Both the position numbers and the translations under genes were made by a program. This document shows, piece by piece, positions 9,364 through 29,606 of a stretch of DNA of 64,000 bases. The first letter of the stretch is position 1; each line of letters begins with the position of its first letter. The stretch comes from Candidatus Levybacteria bacterium RIFCSPLOWO2_02_FULL_37_18 (GTDB taxonomy: Bacteria; Patescibacteriota; Microgenomatia; Levybacterales; UBA12049): assembly GCA_001784115.1 (NCBI GenBank), contig MFPD01000005.1, positions 7,074-71,073 on the forward strand. Reading direction: 5' to 3'. A model generated the notes under the pieces. The model saw nothing but the letters and a program-made list of their open reading frames with translations. It was not told the DNA's origin and ran no database searches.

Positions 9364-12300
9364 CTATGGAGCTCCTGTATTCGGGCCGAAGCGGACAGCA
9401 CCATCATTCATAAGGAGTTTTATTTGGGTTGCGGTGAGGGCATAGTTGTAGATTCTGGCATCATCAATCTGGCCACTCATATAGCTTGTGGTAGTAATAG
9501 TTCTTGCACCAATTAACAAGTTTCCTGTGTCTGAGGTGGGGACTGTTCCGCTAAAACTTGCTGAAGCGACTTGCTTTCCATCCAGAAAAACTTTTAGGGT
9601 TGACCCATCAAGAGTACATAGCCCATGATACCAAGTGTTGTTGGATGAAATTACTCCAGTGGCTGTCGCAGTAACATGAGCTGATCCATTAAATACCTGA
9701 CACACGAGATTATTAGTATTTACGTAAAGACGGTAGACGACTCCCCAATGTGGGCTAACGTTTCCTGCTGAATGTTGTTTGTTGAGGATCTGTTGATATG
9801 TGGTGGCATTTGTAGTCCTAAACCATGCTCCGTAACTAGTATTGTTTCCAGGATTTAAGATCGAAGCATTTGCCATACTCACATAATCGTCCGTCCCGTC
9901 AAAGTTTAAAGAATAATTTCTTTTGCCTGTTACACCATTGCCCCAGGCTGTGGAGGAGGTGGGGCAGTTACCAATTGTTGTCTCGCTGCCTCCAGAACCT
10001 ACTGTTAAAGTCCCGGTATTACTATTCCCTGAAGAATCATTAATAACAGTTCCCTGGCATTCATCCATTTTGTAGTAGGCAACAGGAGCCCCTCTATTAT
10101 AATCCCAGGCAACTTGGGCCGCGGAGCGGGCATAGTTATATACTCTTACCTCGTCAATCTGACCATTAACGAACCTGCCATTAGCAGATTCATTTCCAAT
10201 TCTGGTAGTGCCTGTATTGGGAGCATCTGTGGCTGTACCGTTATCATCCTGAACTCCGTTAATATATAGTTTGGTAGCTCCAGCGCCAGTTCCAGATTTA
10301 GTTACTGCTACATGAACCCAAACATTAAGAGGTGGGGCATTGGCTGAAATTATGGTTTTTGTGCCATTAGAATTAGTTTGGAGCTTCAATACTCCTTCAA
10401 CAAAAAAATCAGTAAGTCCCTGCGAGAAAAACGTTTGAATACTTGTGCTACTTATTTTTATCCACGATTCAATTGTAAAAGCAGAACCAAGCAAAGTGGT
10501 AGGTGTAATACTGACAAAATCATCAGTGCCGTTAAAATTGCCGGCTGAACCGTGTTTTCCAGGTTTCCAATGAGGAGTGCCTGTCCCATTCCAAGTTCCA
10601 GTGTAACCATTTCCGCTTGTATCTATGACACTACTGCCACTTTTTTCCTCAAAATCCCATCTGCCAACTGGGGCTGTACAAGTAGTTGAATCTCCAGGAA
10701 TACAATACTCCTGATTTGCTGCATTTGGTTGGTAGGTTGAATTATCTGATAGTGCTCCTAAAACCAGATTAGAACCTCTGTTGTATTCCAGCTTTACCTC
10801 ATCAGCTGTGAGGGGATATGAATATACTTTAAACTCATCAATCTTGCCATCAAAATTAGCTGTGGTAGTACCACCAATTAACAAATTATTAGTATCTGCT
10901 GCTGGCGCACCAGAGCCATCTGTTGAAGTTCCTCTCAAGATGCCATTAATATAAATACTAATCTCATCATCACTATCATCTTCATACACAAGTAATATAT
11001 GGTTCCAGGAAGCAGTAGTAATAGGAGCAGAGATATTTAAGGTGGCATCGGTTGTGGCAAGGTCAAAAGAGGCTTGCACATCTAAATTTGACCCTGATTG
11101 GGAATCTACCCGAAGATAGGTAGTAGTACCTTTTTGAAAGATTTGGCCCACATCCCCTTCGCCATCTGTATCTGTATTAACCCAGGCAGAAAAAGTATAA
11201 GCACTTGTAGTATTAAGATCTATTGCGCTAGAGTTTGTGATAGTTACCACATCATCAGAACCATCAAAGTCCAGGGCTTTATCAAACTTACCAGAGAGTG
11301 AACGGGAAGCTGTTGAGGTTCCATCCAATGTAGTCCCATTACTGCCAGAATTACACACATCATTTGTGCCTCCACTACATCTATTATCTGCTCCTTCGTC
11401 AAATTTCCAGTAGGCAACAGGTCCTCCCCTGGCTCCACCAGTTGTTGATCCTCCACTGCTTCCTGCATATACCCCAGGATGCCCTGCCCCCATGTCTTCT
11501 ATAACTTGTTTTTGGGTCCGGGCATAAGCATACATCTTAAAATCATCAATTTTGCCATCAAAGTTGTCAGTAGTAGTGCCTCCAATTAAAAGATTATTGG
11601 TATCTGCGGCAGGAGCCCCAGAACCGTCAGTACTTGAACCTCTATTTACCCCATCAATATAGATCGTAATCTCATCATCACTGTCATCTTCGTAGGTAAC
11701 TGCAATATGGTGCCAGGTGTTGGTAGTAATGGGGGCGGAGATATTTAAGGTAGCATCAGTTGTGGCAAGATCCAGCTGCGCTTCAACATCAAGGTTTGCG
11801 CCTGATAAGGTATCTACCCGTAGGAAAGTAGTGGCTCCTTTTTGATAGATCTGACCACCCGAACCTTCTCCTGCAGAATCTGCGTATACCCAGGCTTCAA
11901 AGGTATAGGCAGAGTTTGTATTAAGATCTATAGCAGAGGCATTGGTAATAGTATTGACATCATCAGTCCCGTCATAATCCAAGCTTGCGCCAAACTTTCC
12001 TGGTTTCCAGGTAGCACCAGTGATAGTCCCAGTGTTAGCATTTCCAGAAGAATCATTAGCAGAAGTACCAGTTTTTTCATCCATTTTCCAATATCCAACT
12101 GGCCCTGGGGCAAAGTTGTAGAGGGAAGTGCGTTCTGCAGCAGAAAGGACTTTTTTATAAAAACGGACTTCTTCAATTCTGCCGTTCCAAGGTTGTTGAG
12201 AAGTATTCAGTCCGCCAATTACAAAGGCCGAACCGCTGTCTCTTACTCCAGTAGTATGTGCCAGACTATCTACAGTGCCATTGTTGACTTGGATATTCAG

Positions 12301-14001
12301 TGTGTTATTAACCGAATCATGCCAAACCATAATAAAGTGCCAGGTAGATGTTGAAGGACTTCCAAAACTGCTTGCTTCTAAGTTGGTTTGCGATCCCCCA
12401 GAAGGAAAAACTACAAACCTGAAACGATCACTTGATTGAAGATATTGAATGGCAAAATCATAACCAGATCCCGTGTCATTCCACTTACCTACCGCAACAT
12501 GATCGGTTGATTTGGTATCCATATAAACCCATGCTGAAATTGTAAAATCGATATCTCCAGTTGATACAGTTGAATTATCAGCAATACTCAAAGTTTCAGT
12601 ATTTGCAGAAGTAAACTGACCAGCATTACCAAACTTGCCCGGATTAGCTGTGACAGTATTGTTGTCAGTAAGAGTATTACCGTTTCCTGAAGAATCAGAT
12701 CTATTTCCAGATGCTTCATCCATCTTCCAGTAGCCTACTAATCCATCAGAAAGACTAGATTGCTTCGCTCCGCTCGCAATGACGCCGCCGCCGGAGTTGA
12801 AAGAGGAGCCTTCATTATTTGCTCTTGAGTTATAATCAGCCTTGATCTGGTCAGCAGTACGGGCATAGGGGTAGATTTTAGGTTCGTCCACGAAGCCCTT
12901 AAATGGAAAGACTACATTCGAATCATTTTCATTACCATCATTTCGATTTGATCCAATACGTAGCTTACCATTGTTCGAAACGTTCCTAACTGTAAGCCCT
13001 GTCGATGTTTGTCGTAACTTTCCATCAAGGTAAATAAGTATGCTTGTTCCTGTGCGAACACCAGTAATTTGATGCCAATTCGAATCATTAACTGAGTTAG
13101 CACCAATACCAGAATAACTATCACTTACATTTGCTGTATATAAGATAATGTCATTGTTCGTATCGATATATACAGAGTAATCTCCGTTCGTATAAGAAGT
13201 AGTGTCTTTTTTATTAATAAGATCTTGTCTAGTGCCAAAGTTACCTGTTCTTCTAAACCAAAGTTGAATAGTGAAATCTCCAGTGCCAAGGTCTAGACTG
13301 TTCGCGTCATTTACCTTTACAAAATCATCCGTACCATCAAACAGTAAGCATTTACCAGAGATACACATATCCTCAGTCTGCCAGGTGGGACTATTAGTCA
13401 AGGTGCCGTCGTTGTTGTTAGTTGTTGAATCTTGGGCTGTTGTGCCGGTGCCGTCGTCAAACTTCCAGTAAGCTACAGGAGAAGTTGCTTTTTCTTCAGA
13501 TCCAGCAGAAGCTGCTCCACCTGAGGGGGTAGTGGTAGCATCTGAGAAATCTGCAGCTTGGGTGCCATTTGCAGCAGAAGGGTTACCATAATACATGTAG
13601 ATTAAATTAGAGCCATTAATAATTGATGGCATTAAAACATCAAAATCAGTTGAGGCATCGTCACAAGGTCCTGAGGCTGAGTCCAAGTAATATTTGAGTA
13701 TCTTACCATTAGGATCAGTAAATCTCACATCTCCACAATCATCCTGAAAAGTAGTTGGTGAACCAGTTGTATCAATATCAAACTCTACTTGAGTAGGTGT
13801 TGAAACAGCAGCATTATGAGTAAAAGTTACAGCTTTTCTAAAAGCCCAATTATCATCAAACCAGGCAGCAGAGACCTTTTTAGGATTTAAAAATATAAAC
13901 CCAATCCCAGTACCGGATAAAATAAGGAAACCAATTAAATAGGTAATGAGAGCTCTCTTGGTTAATTTAATGAAACCTTGTTGAAATTGCCTTTTTGTCA
14001 T
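9364..14001 (-). CDS. giant surface protein (about 1545 aa from ATG 14001; ORF open to 14166): N-terminal TM anchor then at least 6 LamG/Concanavalin-A-like lectin repeats; contains in-frame palindromic element and an internal tandem duplication
   Basis: repeated (A/G)YWK(M/F)DE...DSSGNGNTGT...W.PGKFG Laminin_G_3-type modules; TM LITYLIGFLILSGTGIGFIFL; ATGACA start lies inside a TGTCAT element. Confidence 0.8.
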   Translation of the reverse strand: MTKRQFQQGFIKLTKRALITYLIGFLILSGTGIGFIFLNPKKVSAAWFDDNWAFRKAVTFTHNAAVSTPTQVEFDIDTTGSPTTFQDDCGDVRFTDPNGKILKYYLDSASGPCDDASTDFDVLMPSIINGSNLIYMYYGNPSAANGTQAADFSDATTTPSGGAASAGSEEKATSPVAYWKFDDGTGTTAQDSTTNNNDGTLTNSPTWQTEDMCISGKCLLFDGTDDFVKVNDANSLDLGTGDFTIQLWFRRTGNFGTRQDLINKKDTTSYTNGDYSVYIDTNNDIILYTANVSDSYSGIGANSVNDSNWHQITGVRTGTSILIYLDGKLRQTSTGLTVRNVSNNGKLRIGSNRNDGNENDSNVVFPFKGFVDEPKIYPYARTADQIKADYNSRANNEGSSFNSGGGVIASGAKQSSLSDGLVGYWKMDEASGNRSDSSGNGNTLTDNNTVTANPGKFGNAGQFTSANTETLSIADNSTVSTGDIDFTISAWVYMDTKSTDHVAVGKWNDTGSGYDFAIQYLQSSDRFRFVVFPSGGSQTNLEASSFGSPSTSTWHFIMVWHDSVNNTLNIQVNNGTVDSLAHTTGVRDSGSAFVIGGLNTSQQPWNGRIEEVRFYKKVLSAAERTSLYNFAPGPVGYWKMDEKTGTSANDSSGNANTGTITGATWKPGKFGASLDYDGTDDVNTITNASAIDLNTNSAYTFEAWVYADSAGEGSGGQIYQKGATTFLRVDTLSGANLDVEAQLDLATTDATLNISAPITTNTWHHIAVTYEDDSDDEITIYIDGVNRGSSTDGSGAPAADTNNLLIGGTTTDNFDGKIDDFKMYAYARTQKQVIEDMGAGHPGVYAGSSGGSTTGGARGGPVAYWKFDEGADNRCSGGTNDVCNSGSNGTTLDGTSTASRSLSGKFDKALDFDGSDDVVTITNSSAIDLNTTSAYTFSAWVNTDTDGEGDVGQIFQKGTTTYLRVDSQSGSNLDVQASFDLATTDATLNISAPITTASWNHILLVYEDDSDDEISIYINGILRGTSTDGSGAPAADTNNLLIGGTTTANFDGKIDEFKVYSYPLTADEVKLEYNRGSNLVLGALSDNSTYQPNAANQEYCIPGDSTTCTAPVGRWDFEEKSGSSVIDTSGNGYTGTWNGTGTPHWKPGKHGSAGNFNGTDDFVSITPTTLLGSAFTIESWIKISSTSIQTFFSQGLTDFFVEGVLKLQTNSNGTKTIISANAPPLNVWVHVAVTKSGTGAGATKLYINGVQDDNGTATDAPNTGTTRIGNESANGRFVNGQIDEVRVYNYARSAAQVAWDYNRGAPVAYYKMDECQGTVINDSSGNSNTGTLTVGSGGSETTIGNCPTSSTAWGNGVTGKRNYSLNFDGTDDYVSMANASILNPGNNTSYGAWFRTTNATTYQQILNKQHSAGNVSPHWGVVYRLYVNTNNLVCQVFNGSAHVTATATGVISSNNTWYHGLCTLDGSTLKVFLDGKQVASASFSGTVPTSDTGNLLIGARTITTTSYMSGQIDDARIYNYALTATQIKLLMNDGAVRFGPNTGAP
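10830..11990. repeat. intragenic tandem duplication (two copies of about 700 bp, about 75% nt identity) inside the LamG giant gene
   Basis: 10830-11275 aligns with 11536-11985; encoded blocks YDGTDDVNTITNASAIDLNT...NLLIGGTTTDNFDGKIDDFK and FDGSDDVVTITNSSAIDLNT...NLLIGGTTTANFDGKIDEFK. Confidence 0.8.
12757..12783. repeat. half palindromic element (agattgcttcgctccgctcgcaatgac) in frame in the giant LamG gene (encodes VIASGAKQSS)
   Basis: CTCGCAATGAC terminus plus GATTGCTTCG inner arm. Confidence 0.7.
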
Positions 14002-14124: not shown

Positions 14125-14190
14125 TGTTTTAACCCTTGACAAAAGTTTGTTCATAAAATTGACCAATTTATATTGGTAGTTAAAATAGAA

Positions 14191-20100: not shown

Positions 20101-21558
20101 TAACAGATCAACAGTAGTATTGATTTGGTAAATTGCTCCATTTGACTGAGTCCACCAATTGATACCTCCGGATGTTGAGCCAAGCTGTGTCCAGGAGGAG
20201 CCGTTGCAATAATAGTATTGGGTCATAGGCCCGTCATAATAGAATCTTCCGGCTGTAGAAGAAGAGCAAGTGCCGGCGTCAGATTGAATACTCGGAGCCA
20301 GAGAAAGAGTGGCAGAAATACTGGCTGATCCGGCGATGTCTAATTTAAAACTGGAATCTGCGGTTGATTTTCCTAAAGCCAGGTTGTCGGTTGAAGTGGT
20401 TAAGGCAACGGAAGTTCCATTGTCTGTAAATCCTGAAATATTTAAATCAGAACTGCTGGGAGTAAAGGTGAGTTTGTTATTGGAAGTATCAATTGCAATA
20501 GCCAAACCTGATCCTGCTGCAAACGTAATGGTGTCTTTTGAATTGCCTGCATCAAAACTTGAGGAGCCTACAGTAATGGTTTTAAATACTTTTAAAGAAG
20601 AGCCGGTATCGGCGTTGGTAATTTTTAATCCATCAACGGTGATTCCATCTCCTGCCTCAAGTTTTAAGTCTCCTGTTTTGCTGCCTAACGAGATTACTCC
20701 GGTATTAGTGATTTTAGGACTTTGTCCGGAAGAGATTGAGACGCCAGTGCCTGCAGTTAGACTGTAGATAATGTTACCCGCAGTGAGTTTGCCTGAACCC
20801 AGATTTATATCTTTGTTGTCAGTTGAAATATTGCTGTTAAACTTTGCTTCGCCTTCAACTGTGAGAGTGTCGGCTAAAACAGAAGGCACATTAACTTTGA
20901 AGGTGATATTTTTAGGAATATCGGTCGCAGCCAGGACCCCGCTTTTACGTTCCAAGGCCTGGTCTTGCGAGGCTAGACCAGGGTGAGATAGTTCGGGCAG
21001 CCCTACTTCCAAAACTCCGGCTCGGTTGAGTGCGCCAACAAGCGAGGTGGAAAAGAGGAGCACAGCAAAGCCCATGATTATTCTTTTCTGAATAACTGTC
21101 AACGCTATGTCATTGCGAGGAATCTTTATTATCGAATCAAGTGTGTTTGCAGTGAAAAGAGAAGATTTTTTGGCGAGATTTGATATGGTTTGATATTCTT
21201 TGGATATTCTTGGATAGAGATTTTTGAGAATCTGATGAATGTCATTTTTAACTTGTTTGAGAAACTTACTTCTTGATTCATTTCGTTCACTCGAAGAAGA
21301 ACTAGTGGTGATCTCTTGAGATTGCTTCACCCCTTCGGGGTTCGCAATTACAAGAGAGGGAGATGTAGTGACAGTTGTCCCCCCCCCCAAGCTATAAACA
21401 CCTGTGAACTCCTGTACTTGTTTTAATGAATACCGTCTTTGGTTTCCGGGAGTTCTCCTGGGTGTTAATACTCCGTTTTTATCATACCGCCTTAGCGTGG
21501 TAATGGATACCCGAAGTAATTTGGCAGCCTCTTGAATAGTTAGTAATGTGTCGTCCAT
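14191..21558 (-). CDS. giant surface protein (2455 aa as one ORF): N-terminal Xis/MerR-type HTH (aa 1-55), G9-encoded GGG, signal/TM (MGFAVLLFSTSLVGA at 21075), long beta-rich repeat region, Gly-rich block, conserved DFAEYFRK domain, C-terminal domain ending NWWIVN
   Basis: continuous ORF; HTH LTIQEAAKLLRVSITTLRRYDKNGVLTPRRTPGNQRRYS; repeats DLLIGGTSSSSA.F.V; paralogous blocks shared with 21676..26985. Confidence 0.75.
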   Translation of the reverse strand: MDDTLLTIQEAAKLLRVSITTLRRYDKNGVLTPRRTPGNQRRYSLKQVQEFTGVYSLGGGTTVTTSPSLVIANPEGVKQSQEITTSSSSSERNESRSKFLKQVKNDIHQILKNLYPRISKEYQTISNLAKKSSLFTANTLDSIIKIPRNDIALTVIQKRIIMGFAVLLFSTSLVGALNRAGVLEVGLPELSHPGLASQDQALERKSGVLAATDIPKNITFKVNVPSVLADTLTVEGEAKFNSNISTDNKDINLGSGKLTAGNIIYSLTAGTGVSISSGQSPKITNTGVISLGSKTGDLKLEAGDGITVDGLKITNADTGSSLKVFKTITVGSSSFDAGNSKDTITFAAGSGLAIAIDTSNNKLTFTPSSSDLNISGFTDNGTSVALTTSTDNLALGKSTADSSFKLDIAGSASISATLSLAPSIQSDAGTCSSSTAGRFYYDGPMTQYYYCNGSSWTQLGSTSGGINWWTQSNGAIYQINTTVDLLIGGTSSSSAKFAFINVNSGTPTASVSGDLTLNAAGNIQTTKNQTLTIGGGSTGNILLAPANGTSASFVAPSTNNAVDLGSSALMWRNLYLNGNLISGPSGTVGFWQIGSGSLFTTQTTADLLLGSNATSSSKFAVLNLNGTGTPTASVSAQNASGQALVLSGDGSIQSVRNNTLTIGGSTTGNITLSPLNGSGTVLNTGTMNLSTGKTYQINATDVLSATTLGTAVVSSSLTSVGTISTGVWQGSVISPTYGGGVFDITSGALNQRNNTLDLLIGGTSSSSAQFHVYGVAQSGTQPAASVSANTSFAGFQIDNRGVGPLFTASSSGVPQFVIRNNGNVGIGNVPLPTAMLDVAGTASISSSLNFRNGTGTIQTTQMNTLTIGGTTTGTINIGNDATQRNITIGNSTSATALNFTSGTGAQTFTSSNATGTTTSGSWVFTGNSLTSGTGIYESSSSLTTGKLAQLSTGSSNTLTTGTLLDIRSTATSLTGTAGVGTFVNIDWSPGSSTTATGDLFALNIGSNGTTTGNLFNILDSGSSIFAISETGITTSLPLSETAPGDVSLAYDLVFTNPTSNFIKSQAPLYIQAGEVFNSTDLTLAAYNKGSVIVSAESFVINKAATIAAQLVVGGNGAYPPANIGTFYLTSGVNEAGGVLGKALAIFNQTESTDIFTASASGTTRLVLTNAGNLGIQTGVPTAALDVAGAASVSSSLNFRTGASSIQTTANNTLTIGGSTTGDILFNPSNAGAAGVVRPNTTNVTDLGTSSVQFRNIYGQTIYSNGSQLLNLWNQASGTLSPSIVTQDLLIGGTSTSAATFHMYGSAQSGTQPVASISARTSWAAFQIDNTTGDLLTASSSGVTQLRLTNNGALLANNYFAGINNNTNVRATGSTSGDGNNSGIYFQNSTGTNVGRIDTTEADPPSGINSDGALSVSGSTTINSTATTGATSGTVSSGQKAVTVASTTGLTANDIVLIMQMKHGTTANVGLYDKKYISSVDSATQITVDSNLDNTYTQTTVNRCNSSDTACFQVVRVPQYSSVTVTGTGTLTAPAWSTSTGVGGILWFETNGTVTINPGGTVTMAGKGYTGGSGGAGGAGGTTECGGSRTAGSGTAGSSGNGPASGGGGGVATNAGGIDGGSGGGCGLGGSGAGGTAGMGAGGGNATAGTDGGAGSAVNGGNSPAVAGGTGAIGSAGSAASAIGTPTITLRIVMGSGGGGGGGGAGGGKGYASSTGGAGGTGGAGGAGGGIIVINTSGTISNSGTVTVGGNAGSDGGAGDGGVNQGGGGAGAAPGGGGAGGTAWLNGGTVTAGTVTVTGGSANTTVGAGGNGGSCVTYSYGGGGGAGNPAGSGTTGCGNGNGSAGNTASVASGGGGGNGASDTSTTSALTGATGTTHGLLSIGAVALTSGQGTYSQTFTGTTTSPWSLTADSVSTANTMSLSVDGLTTGTGLDIASTATTGGASGNSKLINLSRSGANANASHTAYGLYSDVTNTGTTSTNVALYASASGATTNYAILAEGTNNATVSAFISNSSVNSDADVLALKVGTLTPTTTNYFVAFLTGNSSIAGKIRGNGTQNSVTYDTNGGDFAEYFRKTRNTTNSDGTLIDTNMSPGDLICLDEDGGAVKCSEKENQILGIFSDQAGFVGAGGHENDDNYVLVGLTGQLRVKVSTQSGTLKPRDFLTYSSTPGVAKKATKKGWVVGRALEDSEGKDRVNTLLGVSWYDPNIQFTGSGDLDIALSDTFSVTASNSAHLRGEVPAEAHLGGVSAPRNDISSMLVRLASLEEKVASLTAIQNTRNTQISSESGSLNIRSSDISDLLSRSEFSESATLSGTLTVLGRTLLSNVGITGTVQAGLLSIDGLNANISTLTGPLTLNTLAIDTNGNLFTKGIITTVKIQIDTSDALSASAGIATISAGLTSVQIKTTALTPNSLIFATPDTTPAAVSTQKINTNTFEIRIPEALEEKLKVNWWIVN
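14800..14883. repeat. palindromic element (gtcattgcgag...ctcgcagtgac) in frame in giant gene 2 (encodes HLRGEVPAEAHLGGVSAPRND)
   Basis: GTCATTGCGAG terminus with inner cctccgagg / cctcggagg palindrome. Confidence 0.7.
16000..16950. repeat. Gly-rich low-complexity coding block (GGxGGxGG...) with local GC far above the window average, inside giant gene 2
   Basis: runs of ggtgg / ggagg / ccacc codons; plus-strand ORFs here (16148..16432, 16499..17008, Pro-rich) are mirror-strand artefacts. Confidence 0.7.
21379..21387. repeat. homopolymeric tract C9 (G9 on the coding strand) encoding GGG, at the 5' end of giant gene 2 between the HTH and the signal peptide
   Basis: gtccccccccaag on the plus strand. 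Confidence 0.9.
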
Positions 21559-21675: not shown

Positions 21676-24600
21676 TTAATTTACTATTAACCAATTAAAG
21701 GGAATATCAGTTTTGGGTTGGTTGTTTACTCCCACAGTAAATGATTCATTTGGTACTTGGCGAAGGAGATACAAAACTTCATTATTTGTGTTGCCGTTTG
21801 GCGTGATATAAATAAGTGATTTTTCCGTCACCAAACTATTTCTAATGGTGAGTTCGGATTGGTATGCACTTATGGTAGCAATTCCTGCAGAGCCTGTGGC
21901 AATGATTTCCGAACTTGACAGAGCTAAAGCTTTACTGATCGGGCTTAGATTAAGCTTAGAAAATGTGCCGGAGCCTGAGGCTACTACATTTCCTTGTTCA
22001 CTCACTGCAAAAACAGCAGAGCCGGAAGCATTGGTAACAGTAAGCGTTTTTTCAAATGTAGCATTGCCTTTTACTTGCATATTTCCTTCGATATCAAACG
22101 TAATTAATCCGCCAAGGAAGTTAATACCTCCTTGTCTTAGCGGTTGGATTTCCAGACTGCTATCTAGCACATTAATAGAGTTATCTGTTAAAACAAGGCC
22201 GGTATTTGGGCTGCCGATACTAACAGTTCCTGTAAACGAGGCATCGGTAAAGGTGGAGGGACCGAGAGAAATAAAGCCATAATTAAACTTCGGAAAACTC
22301 AGAATACTCGGAGAATCAGATGAATTCAGATTTTTCAGATAATCAGATACGCTAAGGTTGTCTGCAATAATTGTTCCGGCGCGTAGAACTCCTCCAATGC
22401 TTGCATTACCACTATTGTTAAATTGTTCTATTGTTAAATTGTTAAATTGTCCAGATTGAGCTGTAAGTTGGCCTGAGAACGAGGCGTTGCCTGTACTATC
22501 TATAGTAGCAACAGCGCTGCCGGAGGCGTTTTGGACCTCCACGATAATGTCATTGCGAGGAGACACGTCTGACGTGTTCGACGAAGCAATCCCTTGAGAT
22601 TGCTTCGCTCCGCTCGCAATGACGAGTCTTCCGTTCACCACTACCGAATCAGAAGACAAGGGAGAAATGGTATCGGTATGGATTTGGTCAACGTAAGCAA
22701 TGGGAGAAACAACCTTAGTATCTAGTATTAAGTATTTAGTATTTAGTATATTCGTATTAAGCGTATCAATAGTTCCATTGGCAGCAGTGAGTGTTTGAGT
22801 TGCGAGCTCGGAAGTTTTGATAGAGCCTTCTACTGCGAGTTCTTTGGCATGAATGTAGCCGGCTTCTAGATTTGCAATAACAGCCTTACTAAAAGTTCCA
22901 ATACGATTTATAAGTTGGTCTGTTGCCTTGTTGTTTAAAGAAAATGATATGGTTTGGTCCTGTTGTGTTATAGTTTGGGGAACAGAACCAAATGTCGGAT
23001 CAAGATCAATCGAGAGATTACCGGTGTCAGTAAGATAAACATCGGGGTCGTGAAATGAAGGCTGGAGGATCGTGTTCACGATGCAGATATTATTGTCATT
23101 GTGAGGAGTACCGAGCTTGTCGAAGGATGACGAAGCAATTCCATCTGAAGTAGATTGCTTCACTTCGTTCGCAATGACAGAACAAGAAGGTTCTGAAAGG
23201 GCTCGGCCCACCACTCTTCCTGCCCGGGTTGCTTTCATGGCAACTCCAGGAACAGAACTGTTAGTAAGATAGTCTCCGGGTTTTATGTCTCCGCTCTCGG
23301 TCGAAACTTTTAAAGGCAACTGGCCAAGGAGGCCGACTAAAACATAGTTTGGGTCATTGTCATGGTCGCTTCCGCCGACAAAACCGGCTCTGTCTGAGAC
23401 AATTCCGAGGATATTATTGTTTGTTTGATCACACTTACCAACACCGCCGTCTTCTGCCAGACAGACAAGGTCACCGGGTTCAAAAGATTGCTTCGTCCTC
23501 CACGCTTCGCTCTGAGTCCTCGCAATGACATTACTTTTTCTAAAGTATTCTGCAAAGTCAACGCCGGTTGTGGAGTATTTGACTCCCCCTCCAAAACTTT
23601 GGATTTTTCCCTGAATCTGGCCGTTTCCATCCAGAAACGTAGTAAAATAATTTGTGTTTGATCCTGTTGTAAAACCTAATTTTAAAGCCAAGGCAACAGA
23701 ATTAGCACCTGTATCGGTATTTTCAATCATGGCTACTGCAGTTGCAGATTGACTATCGGAAACATGCAGTTTATAGGCAGGATTTGTGGTACCAATTCCA
23801 ACATTGCCGGTTGTACCCGAGACTAAAAATTTAGCAGCAGCAGTTGAATTTCCGCCAACCAGCAGATCATCAGTTATATTTGTCGGCGCAACTGTTCCAA
23901 GTGATCGTAAAAACGGCGGAGTCTGCCAGGTTGGAACACCGCCTAAGACAGTCAAAACTTGATTTGACGAGCCAATACTTCTTTTTGAAAGCGAAGTGGG
24001 ATTGGAAGATGCGGCATATAAAATATCGCCGGTTGAGTAGGTGGTTAGACCTGTTCCGCCATAATTTGCTTTTATTGATGTTGCCTGCCATGTGCCTGTT
24101 GAAATAGTTCCAACTTGTGTTAGAGAAGAATTTACAACAGCAGTTCCCAAAGTAGTTGCAGAGAGAACATCAGTTGCGTTAATTTGATAGGTTTTGCCGG
24201 AAGACAAGTTCATTGTGCCGGTATTTAGCACAGTGCCCGAACCATTGAGAGGGGAAAGAGTAATATTTCCGGTTGTATTTCCGCCGATAGTTAGGCTATT
24301 ATTCCCTGTTGTTTGAATACTTCCTGCTCCGGTTCTAAAACTTAAAGAACCGGATACAGAGGCACTTCCTGCTATATCAAGAAATGCAGAAGGGGTAGAA
24401 GTGCCAAAACCAATATTTCCTCCTTGAGTAATAACAAGATAGGAATTGGGGTTTGGCGTTGTTCCATTTACGCCAATTTGCAAATTGCCGGAAGTTGTAG
24501 AAATAGAAACAGCATAATCGAGTGTTTGTCCGCAGCCATCAGTAGTTGTGCATTGAACATGCAAAGAAGAAGGACCTACATATAGACTTTTAAATCGGGC

Positions 24601-26985
24601 AGAAGAGGATGCGCCCAAGTCAGTAACATTATCGGTTTGCGGGCCAAAATAGCCTGTGGCTTGAGAGTTTTTGGGATTGACAAGAATATTGCCGGTATTT
24701 GTTCCGCCAAGTGTGAGCGTTTGGTTATTGGTAGTTTGAATAAGGCCAGATACGTTATCAAAGGTAAAGTTGCCTTTGGAAATAATATTGCCGGATAAAC
24801 CTTCGATTCTCAGTTTTGATGAGTCAGACGCGGTTCCTCCAAGTATAAGATCATCGGTTGAATTCAAAGGCGAAATTACCTGGCTGTTTCTTTGCCACCA
24901 GCCCTGGGTTCCGGAAATAAGAGTGGGAAATACATTTTGAGTATAAATATTTTTCCAAGAAGCAAGAGGAGAGCCGATAGTATAAAGTCCGGTGTCAACA
25001 GGCGTAATATTTCCTTTGATATCAAGCGCATTTTGGGGAGCTGCAGTACCAATGCCAACCCAGCCGTCGCTGTCAATAACAAACTTGGTTGCGCCTGAGC
25101 TTGAAGCGGTAATAAGATCACCGGAGCTATTATTATTCACAATAAAAGAGGCAACCGCTGATTCAGTCGCGTTGATAATTACTTTATCGTCTATTTCAAC
25201 TGCTCCAGGGTTAAATTCTCCATTCATGGAGCTATTTATAATTGGTTTTTGAATATCAACAGAGCCAAACCCGTCAGGAGAAAGCTCGATATTGCCATTT
25301 GAACCCGGCACCGTGTTGAGAATTACAGACTTTCCGGAAAGTGTGAAAGTGCCGCCTGTGGCTTGAAATGTGGGAGAAGCATTTTGTCCGATGACTAAAT
25401 TTCCCGATGAGTTAAGAGACAGAACAACATTTTTTGCATCACCTTGGGTAATGGGCGAAAGTCCATCAAGAGTAAGAGCGTTTTGAGAGAATTGGGTGGT
25501 TGGGATTTGCTGACGGGGAGATAATTCTTCATCCGAGCCGACCTGAATGCCTAAAAAAAGCTTTTCGTTTTCAGAAAAAATAGATTCGGAAAGAGGGTTA
25601 TTTATTCCAAGTACAACAGAAAATGTTCCGTCAGAATTGGGACTTATGGTATGAACTTCTTTCCAAATTAAAGAATTTGAGAAATTGGTTGGGTGATTAT
25701 ACAAAGAAAAAGTTACATCTTTTGGGGAATTGATTGGATTATTGAGCCGATCCAGGAGTTTGCCTGTAAAAAAAAGAGTTTTTGGAGAAATATGAGTAGA
25801 AAGAATGGCTTTTGGCGGCGAATGTAAAAAATCAGTCTTATCGAAAAAGAATAATGTGCCACTCGTAACAATAATTATTAAAATGGAAAAATGAATATAG
25901 CTTGAAATTGGTGAAGCATGATATTGTTTGTACCATTTTGGTCTTTTGTGTTTGAGAAAAACAATTAATTTTTTATGGAAAGGAAGATAAGAAGTAGAGA
26001 TGGGCGCGTAAAAACTTTTGGGAATATTAGGAATATATGAAGATGATTGTTTTTGAAACAGTTTTAGAAAAGAGCTTTGTTTTTTTGCTTGATTGGCTTT
26101 TGCGAATTTTATTTTTTTTCTTAAAAAAAGAGATTCTGTCTGATTCACTAAAGCAGCCAGAGGAATGATAAAAAGATATTCCAGTATATAGTTTGATGCT
26201 TTAAGTAGTTTTTGGAATAGGCGGATGGGAGGGAAGCGAGAAAATAAATTGTCATTGCGAGGGTTTGAAAAACCCGAAGCAATCTCGAGATTGCTTCTCT
26301 CACTTTGTTCGCTCGCAATGACAGTGGGTTTATATTTTACATTCGATTCTAGGTCATCTACAGGTTTGATTATGCCTTCTTTTTCTATCCAGGCAAGATA
26401 TTTTCTTAGTGATGAGAGTTTTCTGTTGATAGATTTTGGAGCAAGCTTGGCTTCGTGAAGCAGTCTGTATTTGTATTCGTTAAAAAGAGAAGAGTCAATT
26501 TTTCTTAAGACATCTTGTTCTTTTAGGTTCCATGCATGGATTGCGCCGGTTACACGCTCTGCCCATTTTAAAAACTGGAGCACATCGTTAGTATAGTTTT
26601 TTATAGTAAGATTTGATGCGTTATAGACATACAAGTAGTTTTTAAATTCTTTTATGTGCCATATGTCTTCCTTTTTTGGAGAGGCGGGTAGAGATTTGTT
26701 AAAAGGATCTTTTAGAACAAGTCCTTCTAGTTTTAAGAAGCGAAAAAAGCTTCTCAAGGAAGACATATGTCTTTTAACTGTTTTAGGCGAAAGAGAAGTT
26801 TTTTCTTTTTTATAGATTTCGATAATGTGAGGAGTTATTTCCGGGGGGTTGAAGGTTTTATGAAAGGACTCTTGAAACCAACGGATAAACTGTCCTACAT
26901 CTGCCTTATAGTTTTTGACAGTTATTTTTGAAGGCTGTTTTTTCTGAGACTTCAAGAAAAGAATAAACGGTTGTAATAGATTCAT
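21676..26985 (-). CDS. giant surface protein (1769 aa): two tandem phage-integrase N-terminal SAM-like (core-binding) domains, in-frame palindromic element, TM helix (YIHFSILIIIVTSGTLFFF), giant ectodomain, conserved DFAEYFRK domain, C-terminal domain ending NWLIVN
   Basis: SAM-like pattern ITVKNYKADVGQFIRWF...LSPKTVKRHMSSLRSFFRFLKLEGLV and LTIKNYTNDVLQFLKW...APKSINRKLSSLRKYLAWIEKEGII; no stop between these and the TM/ectodomain. Confidence 0.75.
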   Translation of the reverse strand: MNLLQPFILFLKSQKKQPSKITVKNYKADVGQFIRWFQESFHKTFNPPEITPHIIEIYKKEKTSLSPKTVKRHMSSLRSFFRFLKLEGLVLKDPFNKSLPASPKKEDIWHIKEFKNYLYVYNASNLTIKNYTNDVLQFLKWAERVTGAIHAWNLKEQDVLRKIDSSLFNEYKYRLLHEAKLAPKSINRKLSSLRKYLAWIEKEGIIKPVDDLESNVKYKPTVIASEQSERSNLEIASGFSNPRNDNLFSRFPPIRLFQKLLKASNYILEYLFIIPLAALVNQTESLFLRKKIKFAKANQAKKQSSFLKLFQKQSSSYIPNIPKSFYAPISTSYLPFHKKLIVFLKHKRPKWYKQYHASPISSYIHFSILIIIVTSGTLFFFDKTDFLHSPPKAILSTHISPKTLFFTGKLLDRLNNPINSPKDVTFSLYNHPTNFSNSLIWKEVHTISPNSDGTFSVVLGINNPLSESIFSENEKLFLGIQVGSDEELSPRQQIPTTQFSQNALTLDGLSPITQGDAKNVVLSLNSSGNLVIGQNASPTFQATGGTFTLSGKSVILNTVPGSNGNIELSPDGFGSVDIQKPIINSSMNGEFNPGAVEIDDKVIINATESAVASFIVNNNSSGDLITASSSGATKFVIDSDGWVGIGTAAPQNALDIKGNITPVDTGLYTIGSPLASWKNIYTQNVFPTLISGTQGWWQRNSQVISPLNSTDDLILGGTASDSSKLRIEGLSGNIISKGNFTFDNVSGLIQTTNNQTLTLGGTNTGNILVNPKNSQATGYFGPQTDNVTDLGASSSARFKSLYVGPSSLHVQCTTTDGCGQTLDYAVSISTTSGNLQIGVNGTTPNPNSYLVITQGGNIGFGTSTPSAFLDIAGSASVSGSLSFRTGAGSIQTTGNNSLTIGGNTTGNITLSPLNGSGTVLNTGTMNLSSGKTYQINATDVLSATTLGTAVVNSSLTQVGTISTGTWQATSIKANYGGTGLTTYSTGDILYAASSNPTSLSKRSIGSSNQVLTVLGGVPTWQTPPFLRSLGTVAPTNITDDLLVGGNSTAAAKFLVSGTTGNVGIGTTNPAYKLHVSDSQSATAVAMIENTDTGANSVALALKLGFTTGSNTNYFTTFLDGNGQIQGKIQSFGGGVKYSTTGVDFAEYFRKSNVIARTQSEAWRTKQSFEPGDLVCLAEDGGVGKCDQTNNNILGIVSDRAGFVGGSDHDNDPNYVLVGLLGQLPLKVSTESGDIKPGDYLTNSSVPGVAMKATRAGRVVGRALSEPSCSVIANEVKQSTSDGIASSSFDKLGTPHNDNNICIVNTILQPSFHDPDVYLTDTGNLSIDLDPTFGSVPQTITQQDQTISFSLNNKATDQLINRIGTFSKAVIANLEAGYIHAKELAVEGSIKTSELATQTLTAANGTIDTLNTNILNTKYLILDTKVVSPIAYVDQIHTDTISPLSSDSVVVNGRLVIASGAKQSQGIASSNTSDVSPRNDIIVEVQNASGSAVATIDSTGNASFSGQLTAQSGQFNNLTIEQFNNSGNASIGGVLRAGTIIADNLSVSDYLKNLNSSDSPSILSFPKFNYGFISLGPSTFTDASFTGTVSIGSPNTGLVLTDNSINVLDSSLEIQPLRQGGINFLGGLITFDIEGNMQVKGNATFEKTLTVTNASGSAVFAVSEQGNVVASGSGTFSKLNLSPISKALALSSSEIIATGSAGIATISAYQSELTIRNSLVTEKSLIYITPNGNTNNEVLYLLRQVPNESFTVGVNNQPKTDIPFNWLIVN
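22549..22623. repeat. palindromic element (gtcattgcgag...ctcgcaatgac) in frame in giant gene 3 (VIASGAKQSQGIASSNTSDVSPRND)
   Basis: both termini present, inner gaagcaatc / gattgcttc arms. Confidence 0.8.
23096..23179. repeat. palindromic element (gtcattgtgag...cgcaatgac) in frame in giant gene 3
   Basis: termini plus inner gaagcaatt / agattgcttc arms. Confidence 0.75.
23487..23529. repeat. half palindromic element (gattgcttcgtcctccacgcttcgctctgagtcctcgcaatgac), identical to the right half of the intergenic copy at 27646-27692
   Basis: exact 43-nt identity with 27646..27692. Confidence 0.8.
26252..26323. repeat. palindromic element in frame between the SAM-like domains and the TM of giant gene 3 (VIASEQSERSNLEIASGFSNPRND)
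   Basis: gtcattgcgag...gaagcaatctcgagattgcttc...ctcgcaatgac. Confidence 0.8.
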
Positions 26986-27580
26986 GTTTGTATAATCAAT
27001 GTCTTTTACTTTTGTCTCGGTAGAAGAGTTGTTTTTGTTGGGCCTCGAGATTATACGAATTATACGGGTGTTTAATGATAGAAATTAATAAACTGTCATT
27101 ATTAAGAGTAGACTTTATATATCAAATTGTCAATAACCTAGAGTAAGCTAAAATTGATATAATTTTATATCTTAATATATGGTAAAAATTTTCATATTTT
27201 TATATTCCGGAGTTTTTAGCTTTGTTACGTCTTTAATTATCTTCACAAATTTCAAGTTCGGTTTTTATTCCGAATATTTTCTTATTTTTTAACTATATAC
27301 AAATATAGCATAAGAATGAATGTGGAGAAGAGTTCTAATTTTATTTTTTGATGACTATGTCCTATAGCTAGTATTACGCATAATAAAATTATATGCTATT
27401 TTAGCAATCGAAGATAAAAAGTGCCACACTATTTTTATGAGGAGATTTGGTTATAGATGTAATAAAAATGCAGGAAAATGCTTCATATTATTTTTCATAA
27501 GACACGCTCAAATTGCTTAGAATCTAAGGCTGTTTAGGATAAAAAACAAAACTAATTATACGGCTAAATAGTACATCACA

Positions 27581-27706
27581 CGAATTTCGCAGTTGTCATT
27601 GCGAGCGACCAAGTCAGACTTGGGAAGCGTGGCAATCTCATTGATGGGAGATTGCTTCGTCCTCCACGCTTCGCTCTGAGTCCTCGCAATGACAACTGCG
27701 AAATTC
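27581..27706. repeat. full-length (about 126 bp) two-tier palindromic element with extended arms cgaatttcgcagttgtcattgcgag / ctcgcaatgacaactgcgaaattcg; likely the intact form of the family
   Basis: perfect 25-nt terminal inverted repeats plus inner gcaatctc / gattgc arms; intergenic, upstream of the giant-gene block. Confidence 0.85.
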
Positions 27707-27754
27707 GTAATTAGGTTGAGAAGTGGGATGGAGGATGGGGGAATGAGGGCAGTT

Positions 27755-28705
27755 TTATTGATGTTTTTTGATCCTTTTTATAACAAAAAGAATCAGAATA
27801 AAAATACCAACAATTTCTCCGGTTTCTTTTAAAGGCAAGACAACGAATTGGACGCTTCGGGTAAATGTAGGGCCATGTTTGGACAAGGCAAGGGTAAGAC
27901 GCGCCGTATACGGTCCCAGGAGAAAGCCGTTTTGCCAAGACAATTTTGTCAGGTCACCCTCTGTGACTAAAAGTTTTTCCGAGTCTATGAGAATAGGTGA
28001 TTGTTTGATTCCTATTGCTCCAACTGTTTGAGAAAACATATTTTTGATCGTGATTATACCTTGAGGAAGTATCGCGTGACTGCCCGTGTTTCTAACTCTG
28101 AGCGTAAACGGAATCGGGCCTTTCTGAGAGAAGAAAGGACCGGAAAACTCTTCTATGGTGCCTTTCGGAGAAGAAGAAATGTTTTGAATTGAAAGTAGTA
28201 TATGGCTTGCAATTATTACTTGTGCTTTTGTAATAGTTTCTTTTTTCTCAAAAGTACTCGGTTCTGGATTAGATATAAAAAGAATAGAAAAATAATAGTC
28301 TGATTCTGTTTGTTCGGTAGGAATGTGGAGGGAAAAGGTAAGCGTTTTCTTTTGAAACGGTCCGAGTAATATCTTGTTGGTTGGCTCGTCGTCTTCTAAA
28401 ATGGTAACTTTTTTTAGAATATCCGGGTCTGGCTTTTTGTCAAAGTTCTCAAGATAGGATACATTTCCTTGACTGTCTTTGGCCCGAAATGGTTTGAGAA
28501 GAATTTCAAATTCCATTGGCTGCTCGGTACGGTTTTCTATACTAAGAGGCGTTTTGATAGTGTTGGGTGCTTTGGTTTGAATGGTAATAGAAGGCGGAGA
28601 AACTCTGAGCGATACCGAAGTTGCATATGCCTTGTTTAAAGGCAAAAGTGACATCCATGTCATTCCGAGCAAAGCGAAGAATCTTTTTAAATTTAAATTT
28701 TTCAT
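27755..28705 (-). CDS. secreted protein with N-terminal signal peptide and C-terminal TM anchor (IVGIFILILFVIKRIKKHQ); possible surface-assembly accessory protein
   Basis: signal MKNLNLKRFFALLGMTWMSLLPLNKAYA; part of the signal (RFFALLGMT) is encoded by a TGTCAT half-element at 28659-28683. Confidence 0.6.
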   Translation of the reverse strand: MKNLNLKRFFALLGMTWMSLLPLNKAYATSVSLRVSPPSITIQTKAPNTIKTPLSIENRTEQPMEFEILLKPFRAKDSQGNVSYLENFDKKPDPDILKKVTILEDDEPTNKILLGPFQKKTLTFSLHIPTEQTESDYYFSILFISNPEPSTFEKKETITKAQVIIASHILLSIQNISSSPKGTIEEFSGPFFSQKGPIPFTLRVRNTGSHAILPQGIITIKNMFSQTVGAIGIKQSPILIDSEKLLVTEGDLTKLSWQNGFLLGPYTARLTLALSKHGPTFTRSVQFVVLPLKETGEIVGIFILILFVIKRIKKHQ

Positions 28706-28709
28706 AAAT

Positions 28710-28857: not shown

Positions 28858-28868
28858 GTATAACAATT

Positions 28869-29606
28869 TTAATATGTCGGTACTGCGATATAAGTAACTG
28901 TGTTCGAGTACTGATTTGGTTTGAAGGTATTTGATATGTTTATTTTATAGATAATTTCTGATTTGCCGGTGGTTGTGTTAGCTGTTGCTCTTAGAACAGT
29001 TTGAGGAGATTGCTGTTTGGAATTATTGGCAAAATGCTTAAAGGTCTCGGGAATTAAAAAGTCATCCGCGCAATCCGAAGATATAAGATTGTCACAGCGG
29101 TAGCCGAATCCATACGTCAAAATATTTGACCACGTTGAGGCAATATCTTCTTTGCAAAAGCCGTCGTCGCAGGTAGTATCCGGAATTATGTCCGGGCTTA
29201 CCGCATTAATAAGTTCGTGGTTTTCATAAGCCGTAACAAAGTACCCAATAGATTTTGACCGGTTGGTAGAAAGAGTCGTGGTGCGGATGATAGGATTCGT
29301 TGGGGTAAGCATGCCAAAGTTGATTGTTGTATCGGAAACGGAAAATTCAAAGAAATCATCCGTGGTTATTATTGAAAAGGTTTTTTCTCCCTCCGGGGGA
29401 GGGGTAATAACCGGAATTTTTTGAGTTTGTTCTGCGGTTTGTTTGAGCTCAATTGTGTAATTGTCAGAAGACATGCTTTCAGCTCCTACAGAGCTGGAAA
29501 ATAATCCAATAAACGAATAAACGAATAATTCAATAAATAGCACAAGAATTTTTAATTTGAAATTTTTAATTTGAAATGAATTTTTAAAATTTAATTTTTT
29601 AAACAT
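28869..29606 (-). CDS. secreted beta-rich protein with signal peptide, 4 Cys, C-terminal YSNTVTYIAVPTY; hypothetical cell-surface component
   Basis: N-terminal hydrophobic signal KLKILVLFIELFVYSFIGLFSSSVGA; lies upstream of the giant-gene block on the same strand. Confidence 0.5.
   Translation of the reverse strand: MFKKLNFKNSFQIKNFKLKILVLFIELFVYSFIGLFSSSVGAESMSSDNYTIELKQTAEQTQKIPVITPPPEGEKTFSIITTDDFFEFSVSDTTINFGMLTPTNPIIRTTTLSTNRSKSIGYFVTAYENHELINAVSPDIIPDTTCDDGFCKEDIASTWSNILTYGFGYRCDNLISSDCADDFLIPETFKHFANNSKQQSPQTVLRATANTTTGKSEIIYKINISNTFKPNQYSNTVTYIAVPTY

Follow-up and report, generated by a model that had tools for sequence, protein, structure and literature searches.

A run of minus-strand genes between 5.9 and 30.1 kb of the window, the 64,000-nucleotide (nt) stretch of contig MFPD01000005.1 from Candidatus Levybacteria bacterium RIFCSPLOWO2_02_FULL_37_18 analysed here, probably forms a chromosomal cell-surface appendage locus that is conserved across Candidatus Levybacteria (Patescibacteria/candidate phyla radiation (CPR), Microgenomatia) and in which giant fibre proteins bear cytoplasmic DNA-binding modules. 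In order of transcription, the genes encode a secreted protein of 245 amino acids (aa), an anchored 316-aa protein and, behind an AT-rich gap, a 1769-aa protein (the core giant), a 2455-aa protein (the accessory giant), a third giant built of LamG domains, a four-helix-bundle protein, a GIY-YIG protein and a tetratricopeptide repeat (TPR) protein (Table 1). Each part has a known relative. As far as we could find in published papers, the combination of enzyme-less DNA-binding modules on tail-fibre-like giants with a gene-specific tandem repeat has no description.

The giant reading frames are genuine. Fourteen contigs from independent assemblies (JGI, NCBI and ENA) encode an identical 1769-aa product, among them contigs of the Rifle Candidatus Levybacteria metagenome-assembled genomes GCA_001782445.1 and GCA_001782355.1, and because the same protein recurs on 14 independent contigs, the giant open reading frames (ORFs) are not assembly chimeras. 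Six of the 14 loci are 99.8-99.98% identical to the window, with 1-26 substitutions over 20-25 kb. An earlier reading, made from the letters and ORF translations alone (the sequence-only reading), had called giants of 1769, 2455 and about 1545 aa and two small secreted ORFs upstream; the ORF calls bear out all five, and the independent assemblies rule out a chimeric origin of the giants. The core giant has at least 244 homologues of 1100-3000 aa, and in the best 120 of them aa 1-640 and approximately 1050-1769 are common to all while the middle varies. An exhaustive search with aa 1-400 returned 191 cluster representatives at E<=1e-30; in the 150 listed of these 191, proteins of up to 6048 aa, the module is at or near residue 1. 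In a scan of one genome per species, a relative was found in at least 329 species genomes, mostly titled Levybacteria or Patescibacteria.

The core giant begins with two tyrosine-recombinase core-binding domains. Phage_int_SAM_1 matches two stretches (E 7e-21), and the XerC/XerD models of NCBIfam match only over positions 3-93 of ~295, scoring 64-75 bits against cut-offs of ~330. The catalytic domain Phage_integrase (PF00589), which holds the R-H-R-Y active site of tyrosine recombinases, is absent from the protein and from its listed homologues, and Pfam and NCBIfam scans found no catalytic recombinase domain in the block or elsewhere in the window, as the sequence-only reading had stated. A structure model of aa 1-640 contains two confident four-helix domains (predicted local distance difference test, pLDDT, above 90 in both), a disordered linker holding a palindromic element, a long helix, a membrane helix and a confident beta-sandwich at aa 404-494. 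XerA (5hxy) superposes on the first four-helix domain at 1.7 Å over 86 columns with 27% identity. Submitted to Foldseek as one multi-domain query, the 640-aa model gave weak E-values, among which the recombinase matches were clear and the beta-sandwich had no informative match. Across 98 sequences, K24, N25, Y26, D29, F33 and R72 are invariant, as are K129, Y131, D134 and R188. The transmembrane segment at aa 363-381 is the sole hydropathy peak, is modelled as a helix spanning 359-383 and is preceded by KHKRPKWYK. The net charge of aa 1-362 is +36, of which the linker outside the domains alone contributes +19, and that of the ectodomain is -32. The single hydrophobic helix behind the modules and this charge difference predict a cytoplasmic location for the modules, in line with the sequence-only reading.

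A different DNA-binding fold occupies the same position on the accessory giant. Its helix-turn-helix (HTH) matches the Pfam families MerR (2.3e-12, above cut-off, aa 7-43), MerR_1 (4e-9) and HTH_17 (7e-8) and the NCBIfam families HspR (1.6e-10), BldC (1.6e-7) and excisionase (9.5e-6). The MerR models are matched over their first 38-50 positions only, after which come a G tract, a repeat insertion and a membrane helix (aa 160-178) preceded by basic residues. The relatives of the accessory giant, which are 1500-3900 aa long and occur in Levybacteria, Roizmanbacteria and other Patescibacteria, are giants with a fused MerR/HTH_17 domain, and some carry further DNA-binding types (HTH_31, HTH_23/28, AbiEi_4). 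The proposal that the two N-termini are of the recombinase core-binding type and the Xis/MerR type, respectively, is therefore supported by profiles, and for the core-binding fold also by the structure model. That unrelated DNA-binding folds stand at the same position on related giants suggests that DNA binding itself is what selection keeps. Public databases name many of these proteins after their N-termini: homologues of 1300-3900 aa (P0012, P0016, P0028, P0131, P0134 and others) appear as "site-specific integrase" or "MerR family transcriptional regulator" at NCBI and as "XerD" at JGI. Such names cover the N-terminal 60-200 aa, or ~5-10% of each protein, and are misleading for that reason; since a recombinase catalytic domain is lacking, "site-specific integrase" is wrong. 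Hundreds of giants mislabelled as integrase, XerD or MerR inflate the counts of mobile elements and regulators in CPR genomes.

The outer parts of both giants resemble phage tail fibres. A family profile of the core giant aligns the aspartate of its DFAEYF motif to residue 1 of the released fragment of phi29 gp12 (3gqh: DFAEYFESLGG..., E 3.9e-5), and a cut before D1143 is predicted to yield a 627-aa C-terminal fragment. D1143, A1145, E1146 and K1150 are invariant in 32 sequences, and homologues carry PF11962 or PF13884, the former precomputed on many of them. The same profile matches the chaperone domain of tailspike Dpo31, the integrase N-terminal domain 3nrw and, over short stretches, the beta-helix repeats of the Bdellovibrio MAT fibre Bd2133 (8ond, E 1.3e-6). 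Single-sequence searches of the PDB with the C-terminal parts of both giants, and with the 245-aa and 316-aa proteins, gave nothing useful; the family profile succeeded. Both giants end in a domain with a sub-threshold match to K1-lyase_C (PF24146), in which N1764, W1765 and N1769 of the core giant are invariant and which is retained in 52 of 54 complete giants from related loci. The ectodomain of the accessory giant likewise comprises tail-fibre-like repeats, a Gly-rich tract, a G2 site and a C-terminal domain ending NWWIVN. The domain DFAEYFRK...GDL(V/I)CL is 45% identical between the two giants over 269 aa (E 2e-55), and the C-terminal domain ending NW(W/L)IVN is 31% identical over 71 aa (E 3e-5). 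As had been claimed, the core and accessory giants are mosaic paralogues with a common C-terminal domain. The sequence-only reading had counted three paralogous giants; the LamG giant does not belong with the other two, to which it has no significant similarity (best E 0.01-0.13).

The AT-rich leader that had been described as ~770 bp long is a gap of 769 bp before the core giant, with 32% GC against ~39-40% locally. For comparison we used a set of 80 related loci (1.29 Mb in total). In 54 of them the gap measures 275-5240 nt (median ~1.3 kb), has a GC content of 0.31 versus 0.395 and is mostly unconserved. Its 3' part is conserved and consists of a canonical promoter, TACTCTAGGNNNTTGACA-N17-TATTCT, a variable stretch of 20-45 nt, and (G)ATAATNN-GTATAATNN-GTATAAT-(C/T)T(C/T)G(A/T)(A/G)GCT. 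The arrangement tactctaggNNNTTGACA-N17-TATTCT recurs in the anchored set of related leaders, and TACTCTAGG has 22 occurrences in the gaps, all of them in forward orientation, an enrichment of ~27-fold. The element GTATAAT-NN-GTATAAT, allowing up to one mismatch, occurs 74 times in the 1.29 Mb. By a strict count, 65 copies lie no more than 400 nt upstream of a giant and on the same strand, and most of the other nine also lie just upstream, at loci with a longer gap or with a start that was called too early. The tandem repeat stands 10-330 nt before the giant start (L010-L089) and downstream of the conserved promoter TACTCTAGG-TTGACA-N17-TATTCT, often in three units followed by CTCGAGGCT; among arrays of at least three units, 10 of 12 are upstream of a giant. 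The window has one exact copy, where 0.6 copies with up to two mismatches would be expected by chance.

A riboswitch or leader RNA was considered for the gap and dropped. The leader has no Rfam match at E<=1, and RNAalifold predicts no conserved pairs in 67 leaders. In one locus (L080:9533-9557), a three-unit GTATAAT block ~445 nt from the start codon is inverted, alone, relative to promoter and gene. Together, the missing Rfam match, the missing pairing and this inversion favour a protein-binding DNA site over an RNA. No small ORF in the gap is common between loci. A replication origin, another candidate for AT-rich gaps with 9-mer arrays, was rejected on GC skew, which keeps its sign near 27-30 kb. 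The GTATAAT tandem repeat is thus a candidate operator, and we hypothesise that the tandem core-binding domains of the core giant bind these tandem repeats. The dif site of Escherichia coli includes CATAATGTATATTATG, a loose likeness of the GTATAAT motif that offers a lead only. The MerR giants have a different conserved promoter, TTGACAtCCtGTGAAAA, with a spacer of 18 nt by hand count, whereas promoters targeted by MerR-family regulators have one of 19-20 bp. The sequence TTTTCAC(A) is enriched 5-7-fold, compared with the remainder of the loci, in the gaps that separate the chaperone-like gene from the giant (L010-L089), an enrichment that may partly reflect AT-rich non-coding sequence. It recurs, inverted, inside the MerR-giant promoter TTGACAtCCtGTGAAAA and, in the window, at 21619-21625 in the promoter of the accessory giant, and is similar to a DnaA-box-like 9-mer. 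The head of the locus has a tandem array of five 9-nt units, (A/G/T)TATA(A/T)T, at 30145-30187 (minus strand), where LeuRS and an ORF for a 151-aa membrane protein diverge across a gap of 55 nt. Related loci have no equivalent array upstream of the PamT-like gene, which makes this array particular to the present genome.

The two small proteins upstream of the gap, secreted or anchored as the sequence-only reading had it, need not stay anonymous, as they are probably distant members of the Pam pilus or WxL-WxLIP class. The 245-aa protein has an N-terminal hydrophobic signal (aa 18-36) and matches the NCBIfam families CPR_Pam_pilin_C (7.8e-6) and CPR_pilus_PamT (1.2e-5). Its orthologues in L007 and L009 match the full-length PamT model (1.4e-11 and 1.3e-9). 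Four cysteines at 146/151 and 171/179 are spaced as two possible pairs, and paired cysteines are reported for Pam pilins (10.64898/2026.03.03.709456). The model of the 316-aa protein, built from 91 sequences, is confident (pLDDT 91.9) and shows a signal-like helix, two beta-sandwich domains and a C-terminal helix. Its closest structures are RbmA of Vibrio cholerae, WxLIP of Enterococcus faecium and the chaperone-usher chaperones CfaA, CsuC, Caf1M, FimC, EcpB and SafB. Neither this protein nor its orthologues match an NCBIfam family of any kind, so that the likeness to Pam proteins lies in fold and architecture only. Pfam WxLIP_PGBD reaches 20.9 bits on the 316-aa protein against a cut-off of 27.3, and PF06030 is precomputed on several homologues. 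The WxL domain itself (PF13731) has no match up to E 10 in the 245-aa protein or in the C-terminal domains of the giants. The major two-domain pilins PamA, PamB and PamE are missing from 27755-30130 and from the other scanned ORFs of the window, and two-domain Pam-type pilins occur in only three of 54 related loci. In these three (L064:5609-7063, L065:5464-6876 and L068:6070-7575), the PamT-like gene and the giant are separated by a second chaperone-like gene and by a gene for a protein of 470-501 aa that has Pam_pilin_C at its C-terminus and is probably a two-domain Pam pilin.

Gene order supports a conserved core within the block. In the related loci, ComEA and LeuRS are followed divergently by the PamT-like gene, the chaperone-like gene, the gap, the integrase-like giant and the TPR gene. 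Both small genes precede the giant in 54 of the 57 loci with enough upstream sequence, and 15 of these 54 have a second chaperone-like gene. The TPR protein is encoded next downstream of the giant in 31 of 44 loci, and a MerR giant holds that place in three. In the window, the MerR giant and the LamG, four-helix-bundle and GIY-YIG genes separate the core giant from the TPR gene, and they look like additions to the ancestral arrangement. The block is consequently not the single unit that had been proposed; what is conserved is the PamT-like gene, the chaperone-like gene, the AT-rich gap, the integrase-like giant and the TPR gene only. Housekeeping genes flank the locus, with Rho, an M23 peptidase and tRNAs on one side and LeuRS, ComEA, ComEC and several further aminoacyl-tRNA synthetases on the other.

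These observations are consistent with the following scheme. The two small genes would encode a minimal Pam/WxL-type surface complex in which, if the analogy with PamC/D/R and WxLIP is right, beta-strand complementation by the 316-aa protein would stabilise or anchor the PamT-like subunit. Both fibre giants would be inserted by the Sec route as single-pass proteins with the N-terminus inside. Their outer part would form a phage-tail-fibre-like structure, presumably trimeric, with a variable, recombining middle, and, after folding of the fibre, a Peptidase_G2-type intramolecular chaperone would cut itself off before the aspartate of DFAEYF. The conserved end domain is similar to the C-terminal part of a phage capsule lyase. 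Homology together with the presumed lifestyle makes attachment to a host cell or a surface polymer the likely job of the giants. At the base of the fibre, the cytoplasmic modules, having no enzyme, may tether or read DNA, and the core giant could regulate itself as a membrane-tethered regulator through the GTATAAT repeats downstream of its own promoter. The sequence-only reading had proposed a host-attachment adhesin, which agrees with the homologies to the phi29 autochaperone, the Bdellovibrio MAT fibres, the K1-lyase C-terminal domain and LamG.

Several points weigh against this scheme. Firstly, expression, surface display, trimerisation, cleavage and DNA binding rest wholly on homology and context. 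Secondly, several key family matches fall short of curated thresholds: PamT scores 24.8 against 240 bits and Pam_pilin_C 26 against 55 on the 245-aa protein, Peptidase_G2 scores 19.9 against 25 bits on the core giant (5e-4), and K1-lyase_C reaches 22-23 against 27 bits on the last 86-98 aa of both giants (2e-4 on the core giant). Thirdly, the modelled fold of the 316-aa protein does not distinguish a chaperone from an anchor, and as the window lacks a major Pam pilin, a true pilus may not be made. The position of a motif at orthologous genes does not identify the N-terminus of the giant as its binder, as any regulator would be expected to have a conserved upstream motif, and the 9-bp period of the repeat is not a helical repeat. 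Finally, maturation of phi29 gp12 reportedly uses ATP, which is absent outside the cell, and we know of no host for Levybacteria.

Among the alternatives, it is possible that the heads have been co-opted and no longer bind DNA. They would then serve as a basic cytoplasmic plug, a membrane-insertion aid or an oligomerisation platform of a type-II protein, and GTATAAT would be read by an unrelated regulator or form part of the promoter. The heads indeed have no catalytic partner domain and none of the effector and dimerisation regions of MerR proteins, a strongly basic charge extends over the entire cytoplasmic part, linker included, and the motif resembles a perfect -10 box in repeat. What such an account leaves unexplained is why, in both core-binding copies, the residues invariant across the family fall in two helices with the recombinase core-binding signature. 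The recurrence of core-binding, MerR and other HTH folds at one position is also hard to explain unless nucleic-acid binding is kept.

A more doubtful proposal goes beyond autoregulation and makes the giants contact sensors. Binding of the fibre, or a pull on it, would change the DNA-binding head by clustering or by proteolytic release, in the manner of ToxR/CadC and by analogy with Notch, so that attachment switches transcription, starting with the giant's own promoter. The conserved neighbourhood offers no protease site, site-2 protease gene or signalling partner for such a route, and membrane tethering restricts the protein to membrane-near DNA. The architecture of a DNA-binding domain, a single helix and a large ectodomain is what the proposal requires, and a conserved, oriented tandem site follows the promoter in nearly all relatives. 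Slippage in the G10 homopolymer behind the HTH of the accessory giant would moreover yield a free HTH-only product (85 aa for +1, 69 aa for -1), but the tract is invariant. We suggest only tentatively that the giants represent a new class of transcription factors, tethered to the membrane and sensing through an adhesive fibre of micrometre scale. The tandem core-binding domains, or the MerR HTH in the paralogue, would bind operator DNA, and host contact or tension would alter that binding or free the head. If this is true, a single protein would link attachment to gene expression in a genome-reduced episymbiont. The GTATAAT repeat makes the question of whether the fibre is a transcription factor concretely and cheaply testable.

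It is improbable that the locus is a phase- or antigen-variable contingency locus in which G-tract slippage and recombination between paralogues reshuffle the fibres. The sequence-only reading had pointed to a G9 contingency tract in the coding sequence; the tract is G10, right behind the HTH, and is also G10 in all six other assemblies, which come from different samples. Its constancy there does not support variation. The indels are confined to a Gly-rich, GC-rich low-complexity stretch of the accessory giant gene (~16660-16980, minus strand, GC up to 0.495), the sole point on which the assemblies disagree, where the product is 2454 or 2455 aa long and the L004 assembly is broken. Exchange between the paralogues is suggested by the variable middle of the family and by a common tract, which had been called near-identical. 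The tract exists, and its identity is lower than that: 176 nt at 89.2%, or 238 nt at 82%, within regions that are otherwise ~45-50% identical at the protein level. A degraded prophage or integrative element, or an assembly chimera, would account for the integrase- and Xis-type N-termini, the phage-type fibre and autochaperone domains and the nearby GIY-YIG and IS200-like genes, but is very improbable given that the fusion recurs on the 14 independent contigs and in the species genomes counted above, always beside LeuRS, ComEA and ComEC, that a membrane helix is conserved behind the N-terminal module, and that the window scans found no capsid, terminase, baseplate or catalytic recombinase gene.

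Returning to the appendage reading, parts of the system have precedents. Pam pili have been described in CPR bacteria, where a tail-fibre-like protein co-localises with pam operons, PamC and PamD are PapD-like chaperones and PamR is an RbmA-like anchor, with C-terminal membrane helices (Troman et al., bioRxiv 2026, 10.64898/2026.03.03.709456). The present locus resembles that CPR-specific system, which is reported in Microgenomatia, in its secreted single-domain PamT-type subunit and in its protein of two beta-domains with a C-terminal membrane helix. It differs in lacking, within the window, both a PamA/B/E major pilin and an ATP-synthase neighbourhood, and in that all matches lie under the NCBIfam cut-offs. 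The claim that this is not a described system therefore holds in part: Pam pili and a co-localised tail-fibre-like protein are already on record, whereas the Pam preprint does not mention DNA-binding fusions on the fibre gene (10.64898/2026.03.03.709456), and our searches of the literature for giant proteins of Patescibacteria with a fused integrase or MerR module brought up no relevant paper. WxLIP is an Ig-Ig-transmembrane protein that binds WxL by strand insertion (Hassan et al., PMC10599100). In its modelled fold and architecture, the 316-aa protein matches the WxLIP of the WxL/WxLIP clusters of Firmicutes (PMC10599100; PDB 9i1y, 9i25), defined as an Ig-like pair of DUF916 and DUF3324 with a transmembrane helix, although its Pfam score stays below the cut-off; unlike the partners in those clusters, the giants are anchored by an N-terminal helix rather than a C-terminal WxL domain, and their NW(W/L)IVN domain matches K1-lyase_C.

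Closer models for the fibres exist in predatory bacteria and phages. The MAT (mosaic adhesive trimer) prey-recognition fibres of Bdellovibrio bacteriovorus (PMC10769870; PDB 8ond) are likewise cell-encoded and tail-fibre-like. Their N-terminal end is conserved, their middle or tip is mosaic, at the C-terminus they bear either an autoproteolytic chaperone (S74) or a different tip, and they have GNxGIGTxxPxxKLxV repeats in common with the giants. In place of a membrane helix and a cytoplasmic DNA-binding module, MAT proteins carry a signal peptide and an N-terminal domain presumed to bind the predator surface, and the chaperone in the window is of the G2 type (S74 in some relatives). In phi29 gp12 (MEROPS/Pfam Peptidase_G2; 3gqh), DFAEYF stands at the exact fragment start and the pattern GxxV(x)L...K...IGV(I/V)S follows downstream, as in the giants. 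The fragment after the site is 388-627 aa long here versus 163 aa, with extra conserved domains, and the setting is extracellular and cellular, not a virion. The bitopic regulators ToxR, CadC and TcpP are alike in architecture only, with a cytoplasmic DNA-binding domain, one helix and an extracytoplasmic domain. Regulators of the ToxR class have an OmpR-type winged helix and small periplasmic sensor domains. The giants combine core-binding or MerR HTH folds with a fibre of 1400-2300 aa. Xer recombinases and MerR regulators share the N-terminal domain; the giants lack the catalytic domain of the former and the dimerisation and effector domain of the latter, so that they count as neither recombinases nor classical MerR regulators. 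To our knowledge, host recognition in CPR/Patescibacteria is largely unknown outside a few cultured Saccharibacteria, and Levybacteria, tiny bacteria presumed to live on hosts, have no cultured member. The presence of Pam/WxL-like parts and MAT-like fibres in one locus makes it a prime candidate for attachment machinery.

Table 1. Features of the locus, in window coordinates, with strand and basis of assignment.
Feature	Position	Strand	Basis or remark
245-aa PamT-like secreted protein (tip-pilin-like acceptor subunit)	28869..29606	-	signal and NCBIfam matches
316-aa protein, PamC/D/R or WxLIP class	27755..28705	-	signal peptide, two PapD/Ig-like beta-sandwiches, C-terminal membrane helix
AT-rich non-coding gap before core giant, 769 bp	26986..27754	-	GC 0.32
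Sigma-70-type promoter of core giant	27105..27133	-	TTGACA-N17-TACTCT, with TACTCTAGG ahead of promoter; read from sequence
Tandem 9-nt repeat GTATAATTCGTATAAT, candidate operator	27050..27065	-	64 nt before core giant ATG
Core giant, 1769 aa	21676..26985	-	Pfam, NCBIfam
Two tyrosine-recombinase core-binding (SAM-like) domains, core giant aa 4-88 and 110-205	26371..26976	-	Phage_int_SAM_1
Single transmembrane helix, core giant aa 363-381	25843..25899	-	hydropathy, model
DFAEYF, predicted Peptidase_G2 autocleavage site before D1143	23542..23559	-	profile alignment to phi29 gp12
C-terminal domain ending NWLIVN, core giant	21679..21918	-	PF24146 K1-lyase_C
Accessory giant, 2455 aa	14191..21558	-	Pfam, NCBIfam, hydropathy
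MerR/HTH_17/excisionase-type helix-turn-helix, accessory giant aa 5-55	21394..21546	-	Pfam, NCBIfam
G10 homopolymer, accessory giant codons 57-60, right behind HTH	21379..21388	-	sequence
G2 site DFAEYF, accessory giant aa 2068	15340-15357	-	motif
Gene-conversion-like tract common to both fibre giants	24128..24303 (partner 19415-19590)	-	176 nt, 89.2%
LamG giant	9364..14001 (1545 aa from M56, NCBI start); 9364-14166 (1600 aa from TTG)	-	Pfam
Four-helix-bundle protein, 119 aa (23S_rRNA_IVP / TIGR02436)	8959..9318	-	Pfam, NCBIfam
GIY-YIG domain protein, 112 aa	8459..8797	-	Pfam 6e-12
804-aa polytopic membrane protein with C-terminal TPR repeats	5921..8335	-	Pfam TPR families, hydropathy
Palindromic elements, core giant gene	22549-22623, 23095-23178, 26251-26322		
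Palindromic element, accessory giant gene	14800-14883		
Palindromic elements, LeuRS (essential gene)	30885-30974, 32421-32498		
Palindromic element, intergenic, in leader gap	27595-27693		

The remaining genes of the block are less widely shared. The third giant is a LamG array, as had been read from the sequence, with six Laminin_G_3 domains and a DUF2341 domain in Pfam, and it bears a signal anchor. Its identification as the fimbrial protein TafC was rejected, as the NCBIfam model scores 226 against 410 bits and draws its signal from the LamG domains alone. A LamG ORF lies behind the giant in only one of the 80 loci (L015). Profiles also recover the four-helix-bundle and GIY-YIG proteins that had been noted downstream. 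Genes of the four-helix-bundle family stand behind giants in L008 and L009, and the GIY-YIG gene is not a conserved neighbour in the 80 loci. The likeness of the four-helix-bundle gene to Avd raised the idea of a diversity-generating retroelement target, which was set aside because the window has no reverse transcriptase and no pair of repeats resembling a template and a variable repeat. The 804-aa TPR protein has ~10 hydrophobic helices in a membrane part with no assigned family, and a role in surface glycosylation or assembly is conceivable. At gathering score, Rfam finds only four tRNAs in the window.

The in-frame repeat insertions that had been linked to the block are real, and they are a genome-wide habit rather than special to the locus, occurring twice in LeuRS as well. 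The full palindromic elements, GTCATTGCGAG...CTCGCAATGAC, number seven; they are 72-99 nt long, each length being divisible by 3 (Table 1). Six are inserted in frame. The elements encode peptides like ...VIAS..AKQS...PRND, mostly in linkers and loops, and such peptide motifs are present in only one of 31 homologues. The elements are reminiscent of Rickettsia palindromic elements. Elsewhere in the window, CGAAGCTAGC is repeated three times in tandem, with a period of 15 nt, at 36831-36870, at the upstream end of an IS200-like (Y1_Tnp) ORF (36061-36918).

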